From Escherichia phage p000y: DNA of 64,000 bases. Below the pieces are notes generated by a model. The model made no database searches. It was not told the DNA's origin and saw nothing but the letters and a program-made list of their open reading frames with translations. Of the stretch, positions 34,880-41,311 are shown one piece after another. The DNA lies in the sequence record MK047718.1; one strand, given 5' to 3'. How positions within the stretch are numbered: position 1 is the first letter of the stretch; each line of letters begins with the position of its first letter. A program made the position numbers and the translations under genes.

Positions 34880-35494
34880 ATGTTTAAAGTTAATACTTTT
34901 TATAAAATGAATTTTAAAAACGGGGATATTACTCCACGCCTTAAAAACATGTTCTCATATGACCTTATCGAGCCTTTTGAAGTTTTAGAAGTTACTGATG
35001 CTGGCTCGGTTTGTGAAATTAGAACTTCTGAAGGTAAAATTTATCAGGCAGGTGTTGGTAAATTCAGTAATTGTTTTACTTTAATATTCTCGACTGATTT
35101 AGATGAGCATTTTATTGAATGTCCTAACCATAAGGTCTACGAAGTTCCATGGAAAGAAACTAAGAAAAATGGACCGCATGAATACACGAAGGTTGAAACT
35201 CCTCACGGCGATATGTGGCGGCATAACTCTCCTTTCGGAAGTAAAGGAACATTTGCTCAACTGCCTAAACCTTATGACGATGAAAAATACATCGTCGCCT
35301 TTTTATCTGAACAGGGTACTCAAGACCGTGGATGTCAACGAAGTGGTTTACTAAGTGAACTTGAAGCTCATAACCAAGCACGTGAATTCGTTGAGAAAAA
35401 TCCTGGCTCTGAAGCTCTAGTCATGAAAGCAATTACTCAATATATCACTGCTCAACCTGTTGTTCATCCGGTAGAAATTAATTTCATTAAGTAG
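34880..35494 (+). CDS. Hypothetical protein (204 aa)
   Basis: ORF with RBS GAGGAAA. Confidence 0.6.
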   Translation: MFKVNTFYKMNFKNGDITPRLKNMFSYDLIEPFEVLEVTDAGSVCEIRTSEGKIYQAGVGKFSNCFTLIFSTDLDEHFIECPNHKVYEVPWKETKKNGPHEYTKVETPHGDMWRHNSPFGSKGTFAQLPKPYDDEKYIVAFLSEQGTQDRGCQRSGLLSELEAHNQAREFVEKNPGSEALVMKAITQYITAQPVVHPVEINFIK

Positions 35495-35526
35495 TTTACA
35501 TCCAAGGACGGATTAGAGTATAATGA
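35494..35526 (+). promoter_or_regulatory. Early promoter (GTTTACA ... TATAAT)
   Basis: Upstream of the 35549-38980 operon. Confidence 0.5.
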
Positions 35527-35548: not shown

Positions 35549-35746
35549 ATGAAATTTTTAATAGCACAAACAGTCCAATTAAAAGGTGTTGGAATTCCTG
35601 GGGTGATTTTTAAAGTTCTCCCTGAATTTAAAACCGGCGCTGGAATTATCAATGAAGCGTATGCTGTTCAATGGGTTGATTGGACTTCTGACATACGTAT
35701 GGGTAAAGAGTTATCTCCTATTAAAGGGTTGAAACATGTTGAATAA
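35549..35746 (+). CDS. Hypothetical protein (65 aa)
   Basis: ORF. Confidence 0.45.
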   Translation: MKFLIAQTVQLKGVGIPGVIFKVLPEFKTGAGIINEAYAVQWVDWTSDIRMGKELSPIKGLKHVE

Positions 35747-35948
35747 ATTAATCCAGAAATTGTTAGGTACAGAAATGGTTGAAGTTACGTATCGTGTGAC
35801 TGATGTAAGCCCATGGACCCGAAAAGTTGAACCATATACTAAAACAATTAAAATGCTGAAATATGACAGTGGATTATCTATCAAAGACCGTCTACCGGCT
35901 TATGGTCATTGGGCTGATGTTGAAATTATAAGTGTTAAAGATGTCTGA
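35736..35948 (+). CDS. Hypothetical protein (70 aa)
   Basis: ORF. Confidence 0.45.
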   Translation: MLNKLIQKLLGTEMVEVTYRVTDVSPWTRKVEPYTKTIKMLKYDSGLSIKDRLPAYGHWADVEIISVKDV

Positions 35949-36399
35949 GTTAGAGATAAGAAGTAATTTCAAGTGGCCGTCATGTGCATTAAGTAATTTT
36001 GCTCAATGGCCTTTTGTTATGGATGGTATTCAATTCGGAGGTCTTGAAGGATTTCTCCAAGGATGTAAGGTGAAAAATGTTGAACAACAAAGACGTATAT
36101 TTGGGTTGTCTGGATTGGCTGCACAGCAAGCTGGAAGGTCTTATGCAAGAGCTCAGGACCGTGGGACTCTCTTCTGGTTAGGAGTTCCGTTTTCAAGATA
36201 CTCCGAAGCGTGGAAAGAATTATACACAAATGCATATTTTGAAGCCGCGATCCAAAATAAGGGGTTTCGTGATGCCTTACAAGCCTCTAAAGGAAAAATT
36301 TTGAAGCACAGCATGGCTAGCCACCTAACAAAAGATGATACAATACTAACCGAAGCTGAATTTATTGATGTGTTAAACCTATTAAGAGACTCTTTATGA
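35932..36399 (+). CDS. NADAR / YbiA (DUF1768)-like protein, putative ADP-ribose-processing N-glycosidase
   Basis: 155 aa; LSNFAQWPFVMDG resembles the E. coli YbiA FSNFAAWPIKVDG signature, followed by E...FLQGCK region; the true start may be the ATG at 35941. Confidence 0.5.
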   Translation: MLKMSELEIRSNFKWPSCALSNFAQWPFVMDGIQFGGLEGFLQGCKVKNVEQQRRIFGLSGLAAQQAGRSYARAQDRGTLFWLGVPFSRYSEAWKELYTNAYFEAAIQNKGFRDALQASKGKILKHSMASHLTKDDTILTEAEFIDVLNLLRDSL

Positions 36400-37211
36400 A
36401 GCCTACTATTTTGACTGATATTGATGGTGTATGTTTAAGCTGGCAATCTGGACTTCCTTATTTTGCCCAAAAATATAACCTTCCATTAGAACATATTTTA
36501 AAAATGATTCAGGACGAAAAATTTATTTCTCCTGGTAAACTGTTCAATACCGACGATAACCTTGGTAAACAATTAATAGAAAAATATAATAGCTCTGATT
36601 TTATTCGTTACTTAGCGCCTTATTCTGATGCTCTTCGAGTTATCAATAAACTAAAAGAAGACTATAATTTTGTAGCCGTGACGGCGCTAGGTGATTCAAT
36701 TGATGCTCGATTGAATAGACAATTTAATTTGAATGCTTTGTTCCCAGGCGCTTTCTCTGAAGTAATGATGTGTGGTCATGATTCTTCAAAGGAACAATTA
36801 TTCGAACTAGCTAAAACAAAATATAACGTAATTTGTTACGTTGACGATTTAGCTCATCATTGCGACCATGCGGCAGAAATTCTTAATGTACCGATTTATT
36901 GGTTGGCTCGTGGTGAACGTGATGATATTCCTCGCACTGCACAACGTGTACACACGTGGGATGATATTGAATCTCGTTTGGTTCCACCTGAGCATAATTC
37001 AGATTCAGATCGTGAAGACCTTTTAAAACGATTGGCGGATTTGCTTAAAGAATCAGGTGCAACAAGCCCAGGTGCATGGCCTAATCAAATTGGCGCTCCG
37101 TCGAATCCGTATACTTGGCGAACTCCAGGACCAACCGATATGCAGCCATGGTGGACGATTCAAAACTTTCCTTTAGATTCGTCCAAATGGACTTGGTCTA
37201 TAAATTGTTAA
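36396..37211 (+). CDS. HAD-superfamily hydrolase, putative (deoxy)nucleotidase
   Basis: 271 aa; HAD motif I ILTDIDGV near N-terminus, motif IV YVDD; Pro/Trp-rich C-terminal tail. Confidence 0.55.
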   Translation: MKPTILTDIDGVCLSWQSGLPYFAQKYNLPLEHILKMIQDEKFISPGKLFNTDDNLGKQLIEKYNSSDFIRYLAPYSDALRVINKLKEDYNFVAVTALGDSIDARLNRQFNLNALFPGAFSEVMMCGHDSSKEQLFELAKTKYNVICYVDDLAHHCDHAAEILNVPIYWLARGERDDIPRTAQRVHTWDDIESRLVPPEHNSDSDREDLLKRLADLLKESGATSPGAWPNQIGAPSNPYTWRTPGPTDMQPWWTIQNFPLDSSKWTWSINC

Positions 37212-37220
37212 GGGCTAATT

Positions 37221-37490
37221 ATGTTTGTAGTTCATGATATTACAGATGGCAAAAACACCACACGTGACTACGGTCATGTTAACATGTTCTTTCGAGACTG
37301 GCCGGTGTTTCGTTCAGTAAAAGACGCAGAAATATTTAAAGAGTGTGTTGAACAAGGGTTCATCTACATTTCAGAATATTATGTTGAAGGACTCGGTAAA
37401 TGGATTACCACTTATCAGAAAACGCTGAAATCGCTTCTAGATGAAGTGGCTTATAATAGAACCGTAACCAAAATCGAGGACATCAAATGA
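37221..37490 (+). CDS. Hypothetical protein (89 aa)
   Basis: ORF. Confidence 0.5.
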   Translation: MFVVHDITDGKNTTRDYGHVNMFFRDWPVFRSVKDAEIFKECVEQGFIYISEYYVEGLGKWITTYQKTLKSLLDEVAYNRTVTKIEDIK

Positions 37491-38980
37491 TTTTAGATAT
37501 TTTAAACCAAATAGCTGCGATCGGTTCTACTAAAACAAAACAAGAAATCCTTAAGAAAAATAAGGACAACAAATTACTTGAACGTGTGTATCGTTTAACA
37601 TATGCACGTGGTATCCAGTATTATATTAAGAAATGGCCAGGACCAGGTGAAAGGTCTCAAGCGTATGGTCTTCTTGAATTAGATGACATGTTGGATTTTA
37701 TTGAGTTCACATTAGCCACTCGTAAACTCACTGGTAATGCTGCAATTAAAGAGCTCATGGGTTATATCGCTGACGGTAAACCTGATGATGTAGAAGTCCT
37801 TCGTCGTGTAATGATGCGAGACCTTGAAGTAGGTGCTTCAGTGTCTATCGCGAATAAGGTGTGGCCTGGACTTATTCAATTGCAGCCACAGATGTTAGCA
37901 TCTGCATATGATGAGAAATTGATTACTAAAAATATTAAATGGCCTGCATTTGCCCAATTAAAGGCAGATGGTGCTCGTTGTTTCGCTGAAGTTCGCGATG
38001 ATGGCGTTCAATTCTTTTCTCGTGCCGGTAACGAATACCATGGTCTTACTCTATTAGCAGATGAACTAATGGAAATGACTAAAGAAGCTCGTGAAAGACA
38101 CCCTAATGGGGTTTTAATCGACGGTGAATTAGTTTATCATTCATTTGATATTAAAAAGGCTGTGAGCTCAGGAAATGACCTGTCGTTCTTATTTGGCGAT
38201 AATGAAGAATCCGAAGAAGTACAAGTTGCAGACCGTAGCACTTCAAATGGTTTAGCAAATAAATCTCTTCAAGGGACTATTTCTCCTAAAGAAGCTGAAG
38301 GTATGGTTCTTCAAGCCTGGGACTATGTTCCTTTAGATGAAGTCTATTCTGACGGCAAAATTAAAGGTCAGAAATACGATGTTCGTTTTGCTGCTCTTGA
38401 AAATATGGCTGAAGGCTTTAAACGAATTGAGCCAATTGAAAATCAGTTAGTTCATAATCTTGATGAAGCTAAAGTGGTTTATAAAAAATATGTTGACCAA
38501 GGTCTTGAAGGTATTATCCTTAAAAATCGTGATTCATATTGGGAAAACAAACGCTCTAAGAACCTAATTAAATTTAAAGAAGTTATTGATATCGCTTTAG
38601 AAGTTGTAGGATACTATGAACACTCTAAAGACCCTAACAAATTAGGTGGTGTCGAACTCGTATCACGTTGTCGTCGTATTACAACCGATTGTGGTTCGGG
38701 TTTTAAAGATACAACTCATAAAACAGTTGATGATGTAAAGGTTCTTATTCCTTTAGATGAGCGTCATGATTTAGACCGTGAACGATTAATGGCTGAAGCT
38801 CGTGAAGGTAAATTAATTGGACGTATCGCTGATTGTGAATGTAATGGTTGGGTTCATTCTAAAGGCCGTGAAGGTACTGTAGGTATTTTCCTTCCAATTA
38901 TTAAAGGGTTCCGTTTTGATAAAACAGAAGCGGATTCATTTGAAGACGTATTTGGACCGTGGTCCCAGACAGGTTTATAA
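37487..38980 (+). CDS. 30: ATP-dependent DNA ligase
   Basis: 497 aa; adenylation motif KADGAR present; matches remembered T4 ligase. Confidence 0.9.
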   Translation: MILDILNQIAAIGSTKTKQEILKKNKDNKLLERVYRLTYARGIQYYIKKWPGPGERSQAYGLLELDDMLDFIEFTLATRKLTGNAAIKELMGYIADGKPDDVEVLRRVMMRDLEVGASVSIANKVWPGLIQLQPQMLASAYDEKLITKNIKWPAFAQLKADGARCFAEVRDDGVQFFSRAGNEYHGLTLLADELMEMTKEARERHPNGVLIDGELVYHSFDIKKAVSSGNDLSFLFGDNEESEEVQVADRSTSNGLANKSLQGTISPKEAEGMVLQAWDYVPLDEVYSDGKIKGQKYDVRFAALENMAEGFKRIEPIENQLVHNLDEAKVVYKKYVDQGLEGIILKNRDSYWENKRSKNLIKFKEVIDIALEVVGYYEHSKDPNKLGGVELVSRCRRITTDCGSGFKDTTHKTVDDVKVLIPLDERHDLDRERLMAEAREGKLIGRIADCECNGWVHSKGREGTVGIFLPIIKGFRFDKTEADSFEDVFGPWSQTGL

Positions 38981-39168
38981 TGAAAGCTTATTTAGAAACA
39001 GTTATTGTAGCTAAGAAGGATGGTGGAGATGTTTCCACCTCTTGCTCTCAGATTATATTAGATTTTCCTAATAACGATTCCTATCATATTTTTATGGACA
39101 ATTTTGATAAGTACGAAAAAGGCCCTAATTTTGAAGTTTATCGTACTTTGCTCCCGATTGTGGATTAA
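38980..39168 (+). CDS. Hypothetical protein (62 aa)
   Basis: Trimmed to ATG overlapping ligase stop (TAATG). Confidence 0.4.
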   Translation: MKAYLETVIVAKKDGGDVSTSCSQIILDFPNNDSYHIFMDNFDKYEKGPNFEVYRTLLPIVD

Positions 39169-39187
39169 GAGCCTTCGGGCTCTTTTT
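39168..39187 (+). terminator. Terminator AGAGCCTTCGGGCTCT + TTTTT
   Basis: Hairpin and T-run. Confidence 0.6.
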
Positions 39188-39223
39188 GGCATAAATATAA
39201 ATTATTACTAAAAGGAAAACACT

Positions 39224-41311
39224 ATGTCTGAACAATTAAATGAAGTGTTTGAATCTGAAGGCAGTCTTCCTGTCGTCAATTTGAACCCTAAAGCTAAAGT
39301 TCCACAAGTCTGGAAAATTGGTGATATCGATACAAATATTGTAGTTCGTTTATTCTCTTACCTTTCCGAAGGCGACGCTGTAAAACAAGTTAAACTTGGC
39401 GACAAATACGCTCATGTTGTTATTATGAGTCTGTCTGAAAAGGGTAATCTCGCTGAATTGAAAAATGGTCTTGGTCCTGCTCCTATTGATGCAATCAACA
39501 CCATTTTCAATACAGTGTATGAACAGGTTAAAGCTCTTCGTATGGATGCAGTTTTGTTCCGATTCCCTACTAAGAAATTGAAAGGACGTGGACAACAACT
39601 TCAAACTCTTCTTGCTCGTTTAGTTTCTACTAAAACTGGTGGTCGTTTTAAAGTATTGTCTGCAATGTATCAATTCACAGGTAAACACACATATGTGATG
39701 ATGGTTCGTAAAAATGCCAACATTGAAGATATTAAAGGCATCCCTAACATTAACACAGAGTTGTACACGAAAGTAGATTCTGATGTTGGTGAAGTTTATG
39801 TGAGTAAAAAGACTGGCGAAAAGGTCACCAAAGAAACGGCTATCGCTGGTTCTATTGCTGCTGTAGAAGAAAAACGTAAAGATAAGCCTGTTATTGCTCG
39901 TACTAAAATTTCTCGTCGCGCCATTGCAGCAAGTCAATCTTTAGAAGCTGACCGCCAAGAAGGTGAGCTATTCCAGAAATACGAAAATTCTGCTAAAGAA
40001 GTTAGTGGCCCAGCTACAGCTGAATTACTTCCTGAAGCATATGAAATCGTACTAGCCCAAGCATCGTCCACAGCAAAAGGCACTTTAGTTGCTGATATCG
40101 AAAATAAGATTTATAATCGTATTGATGAATCCTTTAGATTTGCTGATGAAGTTTCTTATGGCAGTGTTATTAAGCCAACTTTAGAAAAGTTTGCTAAGAA
40201 AATTAAAACTGAAAAAACAACATCTGTTAAAGCATTAGCTGCTTTTGTTGAAGCTGCAAATGAAATTGCAGACTCTATTAAAGACGAATGGTTTGAAGAT
40301 TTTAGACGAGATAATTTCCAACTGGCTGACGACGTTTTAGCTGAAGTATCTGAAAAAACTTGGAAACAACGTAAATCAGCGTTCTTGTCTAATGTGATGT
40401 ATACTTATGCACGAGAATCGGCTAGAGGCACCTTTAATATAACAATGAATCGGGACCCTAAACAATACTCTGTTGCTGAAAAACGAGCTATTCGTGAATA
40501 TGCCTCTTCTGCGTATACCGATATCAATAATATGTTGTTAGGCCGTTATAAACCGGATTTTTATGATGTTGCAGATGAAGATGAAGTTAAACGCGCTATT
40601 GATGGTCTTGATTCGGCGTTTTTAAATGGAGACCGTTTACCTGAAGGACTAACGTTGTATAGAGCCCAGTCTATCAGAATGCCTATTTATGAAGCAATGG
40701 TTAAAAATAAGGTATTCTACTTCAGAAACTATGTTTCCACTTCACTAGCTCCTATTATTTTCGGTGGGTTTAAAGAGAACGTTGCCCTTGGACTTGCTCC
40801 TGAAGAAGTTCGCAAAGAGCTTAACATTGACAATAATGACGAAGGTGTTACTATTTCTCCTAGTCAAGTAAGAACAGCTATGCATGCACCAGAACAAATC
40901 CGTGTTAACGTTGGATGGGCTATTGATGGCGCTCATAAAGTTAACGTGATTTATCCAGGACAGTTGAGTAATCACCCTAATGAGCAAGAAATTATTTTGC
41001 CTAGAGGCATTCTCTTGCAGATAAATAAAATTACAGATGCGTCATCTGACACTGGTGCAGGTTTAGAATCCAACCTTAAATTTATTCAAGCTGAAGTCAT
41101 GTCCTCAGACCAGTTGGACGAAGCTGTCATTTACGATGGTGATGTTCTCATGGAAACAGGCGAGGTGGTTGCTATGACGGGTGAAATCGAATCGGATGAG
41201 CCGGTATCGTTCTCCTCATTTGTAGAAAAAACTAGTGCTCCTAAAGGATTGAAACTGTTAGCATCTTTAATGGATTTGGAATCGGTTCCGTTTAAATTTG
41301 TTCAAGGATAG
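39224..41311 (+). CDS. alt: Alt-like ADP-ribosyltransferase
   Basis: 695 aa; C-terminal ART signature (R ... STS ... EQEIILP); size and position next to ligase as in T4. Confidence 0.8.
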   Translation: MSEQLNEVFESEGSLPVVNLNPKAKVPQVWKIGDIDTNIVVRLFSYLSEGDAVKQVKLGDKYAHVVIMSLSEKGNLAELKNGLGPAPIDAINTIFNTVYEQVKALRMDAVLFRFPTKKLKGRGQQLQTLLARLVSTKTGGRFKVLSAMYQFTGKHTYVMMVRKNANIEDIKGIPNINTELYTKVDSDVGEVYVSKKTGEKVTKETAIAGSIAAVEEKRKDKPVIARTKISRRAIAASQSLEADRQEGELFQKYENSAKEVSGPATAELLPEAYEIVLAQASSTAKGTLVADIENKIYNRIDESFRFADEVSYGSVIKPTLEKFAKKIKTEKTTSVKALAAFVEAANEIADSIKDEWFEDFRRDNFQLADDVLAEVSEKTWKQRKSAFLSNVMYTYARESARGTFNITMNRDPKQYSVAEKRAIREYASSAYTDINNMLLGRYKPDFYDVADEDEVKRAIDGLDSAFLNGDRLPEGLTLYRAQSIRMPIYEAMVKNKVFYFRNYVSTSLAPIIFGGFKENVALGLAPEEVRKELNIDNNDEGVTISPSQVRTAMHAPEQIRVNVGWAIDGAHKVNVIYPGQLSNHPNEQEIILPRGILLQINKITDASSDTGAGLESNLKFIQAEVMSSDQLDEAVIYDGDVLMETGEVVAMTGEIESDEPVSFSSFVEKTSAPKGLKLLASLMDLESVPFKFVQG

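Follow-up and report, generated by a model that had tools for sequence, protein, structure and literature searches.

Do two adjoining genes upstream of the DNA ligase gene of a T-even phage encode a two-enzyme system directed at ADP-ribosylation, or does each act on its own account? The question arises from the window analysed here, a 64,000-nucleotide stretch of Escherichia phage p000y (MK047718.1), in which the first-pass annotation had described a NADAR/YbiA-like open reading frame (ORF1, 35932-36399) paired with a HAD-like hydrolase (ORF2, 36396-37211), and had proposed that the two serve as an ADP-ribosylation counter-defence or an NAD-metabolite salvage module. Both ORFs exist in the sequence as described. 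Our overall reading, which we hold with high confidence, is that ORF1 is AdfN, acting against DarT1, that the ORF2 product gp30.2 is a HAD enzyme, and that the two do not constitute an obligate pair.

The window belongs to an RB69-like T-even phage. Escherichia phage FP43 matches the two ORFs and their surroundings (1.8 kb) at 98.8% identity, and Mosigvirus members, among them moskry, ATK47 and JS09, do so at 96-97%; the identity with RB69 from 30.4 to alt.1 amounts to 94-99%, with the exception of 30.4 itself (79%). The genes, all on the + strand, follow the order 30.5-30.4-30.3-30.2-30.1-ligase-alt.1-alt, and the order of the flanking genes agrees with the T4 and RB69 annotations. The features of the region are:

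35495..35524, + strand: candidate sigma-70-like promoter, TTTACA-18-TATAAT, within the gap that lies upstream of 30.5 (best scan score, 11/12)
35549..35746, + strand: small ORF of 65 aa in the place that gene 30.5 takes in T4 (phrog_1690, E 2.6e-28), with an 11-nt overlap with the next gene
35736..35948, + strand: gp30.4 homologue, 70 aa (phrog_2042, E 4.5e-34), with an 8-nt overlap between its stop and the start of adfN
35941..36399, + strand: adfN (gene 30.3), 152 aa, by orthology a phage-type NADAR DNA ADP-ribosylglycohydrolase, intact allele (PF08010, E 1.9e-69)
36396..36980, + strand: core of gp30.2 (residues 1-195), a C1-capped HAD-superfamily hydrolase, putative Mg-dependent small-molecule phosphatase/nucleotidase
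36981..37211, + strand: C-terminal tail of gp30.2 (residues ~196-271), predicted as a single helix and then a disordered stretch rich in W, P and G
37221..37490, + strand: gp30.1 (DUF3045; PF11243, E 1.1e-26)
37487..38980, + strand: gp30, ATP-dependent DNA ligase (PF01068, E 1.7e-26; phrog_114, E 5.9e-156)
38980..39168, + strand: alt.1 homologue, 62 aa (phrog_1976, E 6.3e-33), with the length and position of T4 alt.1
39167..39187, + strand: terminator-like hairpin AAGAGCC-TTCG-GGCTCTT with TTT after it, seen on inspection of the sequence and absent from the consensus-scan list
39196..39203, + strand: box TATAAATT resembling a T4 late promoter (7/8 match to TATAAATA); the alt start codon lies 20 nt downstream
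39224..41311, + strand: alt, encoding the Alt ADP-ribosyltransferase, a neighbour outside the feature under study (PF03496, E 5.9e-28; phrog_802, E 1.4e-261)

As far as alt.1 the gene junctions are overlapping or near-abutting, an arrangement consistent with a single transcript that spans 30.5 through alt.1; a scan of the sequence found no terminator-like site between these two genes, and the hairpin at 39167-39187 probably marks the end of this 30.x-ligase transcript. The promoter candidate at 35495..35524 may conceivably drive it, although promoter-like sites in the region as a whole are in no excess over shuffled sequence. The earlier placement of the ORF pair in one early operon with the ligase, just upstream of Alt, holds up in part: co-transcription with the ligase fits the junctions and alt does lie downstream, but apparently as a unit of its own. 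Between alt.1 and alt there are both the hairpin with its T-run (39167-39187) and the TATAAATT box (39196-39203), which, if the box acts as a promoter, suggests that alt is a separate, late-type transcription unit.

Whether the two ORFs are orthologous to T4 30.x genes had been left open at first pass; they are, and correspond to gp30.3 and gp30.2. The ORF1 product shares 147 of its 152 residues with T4 gp30.3 over the full length and matches PF08010 (Phage_30_3) with 232 bits against a cut-off of 36. As judged by this similarity, the ORF at 35941-36399 is the orthologue of T4 gp30.3, since renamed AdfN, for anti-DarT factor NADAR (Johannesman et al., Nat Commun 2025, PMC11825919). The GTG start at 35932 initially assigned to ORF1 is likely 9 nt too early: the true start is most likely the ATG at 35941, yielding a protein of 152 aa, which we prefer because of its end-to-end colinearity with T4 gp30.3 and the 8-nt overlap with the 30.4 stop, as in T4. 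Some public annotations begin adfN at an internal Met (126 aa) despite the full frame being open. The second ORF (36396-37211) encodes a protein 70% identical to T4 gp30.2, with the first ~195 residues conserved and the tail divergent; phrog_420 is its family assignment.

The proposal that ORF1 encodes a NADAR-superfamily protein had been based on the motif LSNFAQWPFVMDG. The motif is present, and the family profile aligns it with FSNFAAWPIKVDG of YbiA (PDB 2b3w, E 0.0012), the match spanning the SNF...E..Q.K motif. YbiA is reached by the family profile only: a single-sequence search of PDB sequences with ORF1 returned no match. The HMM check suggested at first pass came out differently from what had been expected, with no match of ORF1 to the Pfam NADAR model PF08719 at E <= 1 and PF08010 as the model that matches; an NCBIfam search of ORF1 similarly yielded no NADAR match. 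On one homologue (P0181) PF08719 and PF08010 do match together. The AlphaFold model of the ORF1 protein (45 homologues) has a mean pLDDT of 94.6, and the top three Foldseek matches in the PDB are E. coli YbiA 2b3w (E 4.5e-5, TMq 0.67), the Phytophthora NADAR 8bau, with ADP-ribose, and the Geobacter lovleyi NADAR 8bat; beyond these three NADAR-type structures, Foldseek found nothing in the PDB below E = 1. Residues S18-N19-F20, E36, K43 and H123 are invariant among the 45 aligned homologues and are all present in the window protein, with H123 located directly after the last predicted strand (residues 120-122). The gp30.3 proteins have been described as a phage NADAR subfamily set apart by a His at the position occupied by Glu in YbiA and by Asp in DarT1-linked NADARs (PMC11125620). 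Membership of ORF1 in the NADAR superfamily is thus borne out, resting on fold, profile-level similarity and the literature.

What this protein does is best known from T4. Deletion of adfN leaves both T4 and T2 unable to form plaques on DarTG1, AdfN being both necessary and sufficient for T-even phages to resist this system; purified T4 AdfN strips ADP-ribose from DarT1-modified DNA, and the substitutions E36A and K43A impair the protein, assigning a catalytic role to E36 and K43 (PMC11825919). Hydrolysis of guanine-linked ADP-ribose in vitro by the gp30.3 NADAR of phage T4 has also been reported separately (PMC11125620). The activity is specific to DarT1, which modifies guanine: AdfN is inactive against the thymine-modifying DarT2 (PMC11825919, PMC11125620) and is without effect on DarTG2 (PMC11825919). 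The T4 phenotype recurs in an independent transposon screen, HIDEN-SEQ, in which 30.3 insertions are lost on DarTG1 (log2FC -7.25, adjusted p 0, in the table that we take, by sheet order, to be Data S6, control vs DarTG1).

By analogy, the mechanism would run in three steps. Host DarT1 would add ADP-ribose to guanine in the phage DNA; AdfN would hydrolyse the N-glycosidic bond between ADP-ribose and guanine; and, with ADP-ribose removed during infection, replication could proceed in DarTG1-carrying hosts. The suggestion of DarT-type counter-defence by ORF1 accordingly appears well founded by way of the T4 orthologue, for DarT1 only, and we infer both the activity and the phenotype of the window AdfN from the 97%-identical T4 protein.

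The family being already characterised, what is new here is only the assignment of an intact allele to the present phage. RB69 itself is sensitive to DarTG1: a one-base insertion shortens its AdfN by 15 residues, the frameshift removing the C-terminal helix on which full activity depends, and ectopic expression of adfN rescues the phage (PMC11825919). The RB69-type insertion is absent from the window adfN and the C-terminal helix is intact, so that the window represents an RB69-like phage with an intact allele, predicted to be DarTG1-resistant.

Since YbiA is the best PDB match of ORF1 in both structure and sequence, and some databases label homologues YbiA or DUF1768, one may ask whether ORF1 acts on small molecules instead of DNA, either as a YbiA-like N-glycosidase of the riboflavin pathway or in the salvage of NAD or ADP-ribose. 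We consider this extremely improbable. At the last strand the YbiA subfamily has a Glu, whereas His123 stands there in the window protein and in each of the 45 homologues aligned; for the T4 orthologue, ADP-ribosylated DNA is the substrate and a DarTG1 phenotype is on record. As for salvage, the known phage routes of NAD+ reconstitution (NARP1-3) proceed through an ADPR-pyrophosphate route, NAMPT/NMNAT and PnuC/NadR, that is, through other enzymes; in NARP1-3 as described, including in the NARP3 paper, we found no NADAR or HAD component. The idea of an NAD-metabolite salvage module finds no counterpart in any of the three, and we retain the reading of ORF1 as a DNA ADP-ribosylglycohydrolase.

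Does AdfN work together with its neighbour? The adfN stop and the 30.2 start overlap as ATGA; translational coupling through this overlap, and co-transcription of the two genes, are probable. This arrangement would suit a two-enzyme module in which the HAD protein processes the ADP-ribose freed by AdfN, or a derivative of it, or in which gp30.2 is the T-even helper of AdfN. The existence of such a helper is itself a published proposal: AdfN is fully effective only in T-even infection, and T4 AdfN fails to rescue uninfected cells from DarT1 (PMC11825919). It is also compatible with a helper role that RB69, fully rescued by ectopic AdfN, has a gp30.2 of its own.

Synteny and genetics speak against such a module. 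We sampled 76 viral loci with gp30.2 and 80 loci with gp30.3, with fetched flanks of up to 8 kb. While gp30.3 adjoins gp30.2 in 21 of the 76 loci and lies within about 1.2-1.3 kb of it in 14 more (together 35), in 41 it is not found within 8 kb; conversely, gp30.2 lies within the fetched flanks (<= 8 kb) of ~22 of the 80 gp30.3 loci and is not found in those of the other ~58, and in ~10 matched viral contigs the two genes are ~55 kb apart. In the HIDEN-SEQ tables, T4 30.2 insertions are neutral on DarTG1 (log2FC -0.12, p 0.61, 71 TA sites), as compared to -7.25 for 30.3. The gene is non-essential, with 72/72 sites hit, and is equally neutral for RnlAB and for LB vs M9. Furthermore, AdfN alone is active in vitro (PMC11825919, PMC11125620). 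The neutrality of T4 30.2 on DarTG1 argues against gp30.2 as the AdfN helper, unless a redundant activity masks it, and we rejected that role.

The module is thus largely refuted for T4 by the transposon data, and we regard it as very unlikely overall; the earlier description of the NADAR and HAD proteins as one functional unit is not supported, their adjacency being conserved only within a subset of T4-like phages and T4 30.2 insertions carrying no DarTG1 cost. The proximity of adfN and 30.2 instead reflects inherited T4-like gene order and not an obligate functional pair. The ATGA overlap, together with 92% nucleotide conservation of the 5' end of 30.2, may leave room for a coupling that the T4 screen missed, for example through redundancy.

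The same tables bear on two further neighbours. T4 30.4 insertions are mildly but significantly depleted on DarTG1, which is most simply a polar effect on adfN. Insertions in T4 alt are neutral on DarTG1 (log2FC -0.01). Alt, a packaged protein ADP-ribosyltransferase, has proteins and not DNA as its targets; NADARs work on adducts of guanine. With alt neutral on DarTG1, apparently transcribed as a separate unit and its product directed at protein targets, we rejected Alt as a functional partner of AdfN; for the link to Alt drawn at first pass, we find no support in either the transposon data or the apparent unit structure.

What, then, is gp30.2? It does contain the motifs noted previously, DIDGV (D8-D10) and YVDD (D150-D151), and both show conservation over 43-44 homologues, among which D8, D10, G11 and K132 are invariant and T96 and D150/D151 are kept in >= 90%. 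All four HAD catalytic motifs (DxD, T, K, DD) being conserved, the Asp-nucleophile machinery is intact. The predicted model has a confident core with a helical C1 cap at residues 16-86, and pLDDT falls below 50 from residue 227 (disordered). A Foldseek search of the PDB with this model gave 107 matches at E <= 1e-3, every one of the 50 listed being of HAD type. The lowest rmsd values among those listed include those of 5'(3')-deoxyribonucleotidases, with cdN, mdN and 3bwv among the top matches, though not set apart from other HADs. The HAD fold proposed for ORF2, with its Rossmann-like core, is thereby confirmed at the level of predicted model, structural matches and motifs.

Sequence similarity to known enzymes is faint. 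Curated HMMs all score below threshold for gp30.2 (HAD_2, 16 bits vs a cut-off of 23.8; TIGR01428, 12.7 vs 125.4), and of 43 family members six touch PF06941 (best E 0.0029) and nine PF00702. The sole sequence similarity in the PDB, to cytosolic 5'(3')-deoxyribonucleotidase, falls below significance (E 0.18-0.19); the aromatic residue W16 of gp30.2 is aligned with the Phe after motif I of cdN. The gp30.2 family is a divergent HAD lineage. It comprises 1439 phage records, and a profile search of 1.84 billion protein representatives recovered 1142 relatives, among which a few are longer fusion proteins for which Pfam revealed no informative partner domain. Homologues range from 176 to 347 aa, the tail varying in length or missing altogether, and relative to T4 the tail retains 40% nucleotide identity as compared to 78% for the core. 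Distant gp30.2-like loci (L155-L158) have no ligase, and the neighbours at one of these, L155, offered no functional hint. Our literature search on gp30.2 and gene 30.2 found no functional study and no characterised family member.

Caps in HAD enzymes close over small substrates; polymers are handled by members without a cap, for instance Pnkp. The helical cap predicted for gp30.2 thus suggests a small-molecule substrate. Most probably the protein is a phosphatase that depends on Mg and whose substrate is a small phosphorylated metabolite, perhaps a (deoxy)nucleoside monophosphate, the choice of substrate being a guess. The dTMP phosphatase of PBS1 provides a precedent for a phage nucleotidase of the NT5C family, in a paper that draws no link to T4 30.2.

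The position of the gene suggests a different role: that of a 3'-phosphatase which heals DNA ends in the manner of the T4 polynucleotide kinase HAD domain and makes nicks ready for the ligase, whose gene lies downstream. The ligase gene follows gp30.2 immediately, and on the same strand, in 67 of the 76 loci, even where gp30.3 has moved, and one public record names a homologue 'polynucleotide kinase'. We nonetheless think this reading improbable, given the predicted C1 cap over residues 16-86 and the fact that T4 already encodes PseT; adjacency inside one virus family may be nothing but inherited gene order, and T4 30.2 is fully dispensable while the ligase is essential. A small-molecule phosphatase remains our preferred assignment for gp30.2. 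It is similarly unlikely, if slightly less so, that 30.5-30.4-adfN-30.2-30.1 form a co-transcribed accessory island with a second member in a conditional role, be it gp30.2 breaking down an immune signal of phosphorylated nucleotide type, or a toxic product, of some defence system beyond those screened, or gp30.4 serving as the T-even helper of AdfN.

The locus thus presents a case, of a kind published in 2024-2025, in which a lytic phage removes a defensive mark from DNA by means of an orphan enzyme resembling an antitoxin; and, unlike its near-twin RB69, the present phage should form plaques on DarTG1-carrying E. coli. Among known systems, the closest to the window protein is T4 AdfN itself, with 97% identity over 152 residues, the same neighbours (30.4 upstream and 30.2 downstream), E36, K43, His123 and the C-terminal helix. 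The differences, K11R, E89P, I120V, M125I and H128G (window residue first, T4 residue second), are all non-catalytic, and the genome background is RB69-like, not T4-like. The RB69 gene has 96.5% nucleotide identity across its length, but its product is truncated and the phage DarTG1-sensitive, whereas the window allele is full length. The DarG1/DarT1-associated NADAR antitoxins (Geobacter lovleyi, 8bat) and the Phytophthora NADAR (8bau) have the same fold and, according to the literature, the same guanine-ADP-ribose glycohydrolase chemistry (PMC11825919, PMC11125620); the phage protein differs in being an orphan without a toxin partner or N-terminal extension and in having His in place of the Asp found in DarT1-linked NADARs. 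E. coli YbiA (2b3w) is the best structural match (TMq 0.67) and has the SNF...W/H-P...DG and E..Q.K motifs, but is only 18% identical and carries a Glu in place of the phage family's His123. For gp30.2, the closest counterparts are the 5'(3')-deoxyribonucleotidases (cdN/mdN, PF06941) and other C1-capped subfamily-I HAD phosphatases, with which it has the HAD core, the helical cap and DxDGV in common; from the deoxyribonucleotidases it differs by its additional variable, disordered tail and a sequence similarity that stays below significance.

When the window was compared with T4 (L001) and RB69 (L159) at the nucleotide level, adfN (gene 30.3; 35941-36399), encoding the predicted NADAR DNA ADP-ribosylglycohydrolase expected to counter DarTG1, proved 91% identical to its T4 counterpart. 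The corresponding identities to T4 are 62% for ligase, 61% for 30.1, and 78% and 40% for the core and the tail of 30.2, respectively. In the comparison of this RB69-like phage with T4, adfN thus stands out as an unusually well conserved island. Strong purifying selection could explain this, as could a recent exchange among T-even genera.

Public annotations and gene calls frequently start AdfN at an internal methionine, yielding a 126-aa product, as in phage moskry and database proteins P0103-P0105; the SNF motif would be missing from a protein that starts there. In moskry the short form is a start-codon annotation artefact, since the full 152-aa frame is open there (L002 4242-4700); the overlap with 30.4 is probably the cause, and the short forms of P0103-P0105 are likely to have the same origin. 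The gp30.3 database entries also include many short fragments of 83-154 aa (P0106, P0112-P0117, P0121, P0150 and P0201), and some short entries carry additional Pfam matches to other families (PF11097, PF06919, PF06019 and PF26911), hinting that adfN may be recurrently truncated or deleted among natural T-even phages, as in RB69, where it is frameshifted. As for 30.3', the alternative-frame ORF annotated inside gene 30.3 of T4, a stop codon interrupts its frame in the window (36077-36304), suggesting that this ORF is not conserved as a gene.

Published transposon-screen data for T4 on DarTG1 show that insertions in 30.4 were significantly depleted (log2FC -1.79, adjusted p 0.014), while insertions in 30.5 showed a downward trend that was not significant (log2FC -3.0), and those in 30.6 showed no downward trend (log2FC -0.30). 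The simplest reading of the 30.4 depletion is polarity on the overlapping adfN; gp30.4 (35736-35948) is also a candidate for the helper factor proposed in the T4 study for full AdfN activity.

On the other side of adfN, the tail of the HAD-fold hydrolase gp30.2 (36981-37211, residues about 196-271) is predicted by modelling to form one helix followed by a disordered Trp/Pro/Gly-rich stretch, and contains a recurring W-x-x-P-G-like element. Missing from many homologues (forms of 176-220 aa) and far longer in others, it might serve in protein interaction.

Further downstream, a hairpin lies just upstream of alt:

39167-39203: hairpin AAGAGCC-TTCG-GGCTCTT with a T-run, then TATAAATT

Our consensus terminator scan of the sequence did not list this hairpin. 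Across the window there are 19 exact copies of the late-promoter box TATAAATA, as compared to 7.3 expected.

Finally, an ORF lies in the interval that separates 30.7 from 30.5:

34880-35494: 204-aa ORF, phrog_17531

It has no match in Pfam. The 30.7-30.5 interval looks like a variable accessory-gene slot: in T4 it is filled by 30.6, and RB69 has 30.6 and lacks 30.5.
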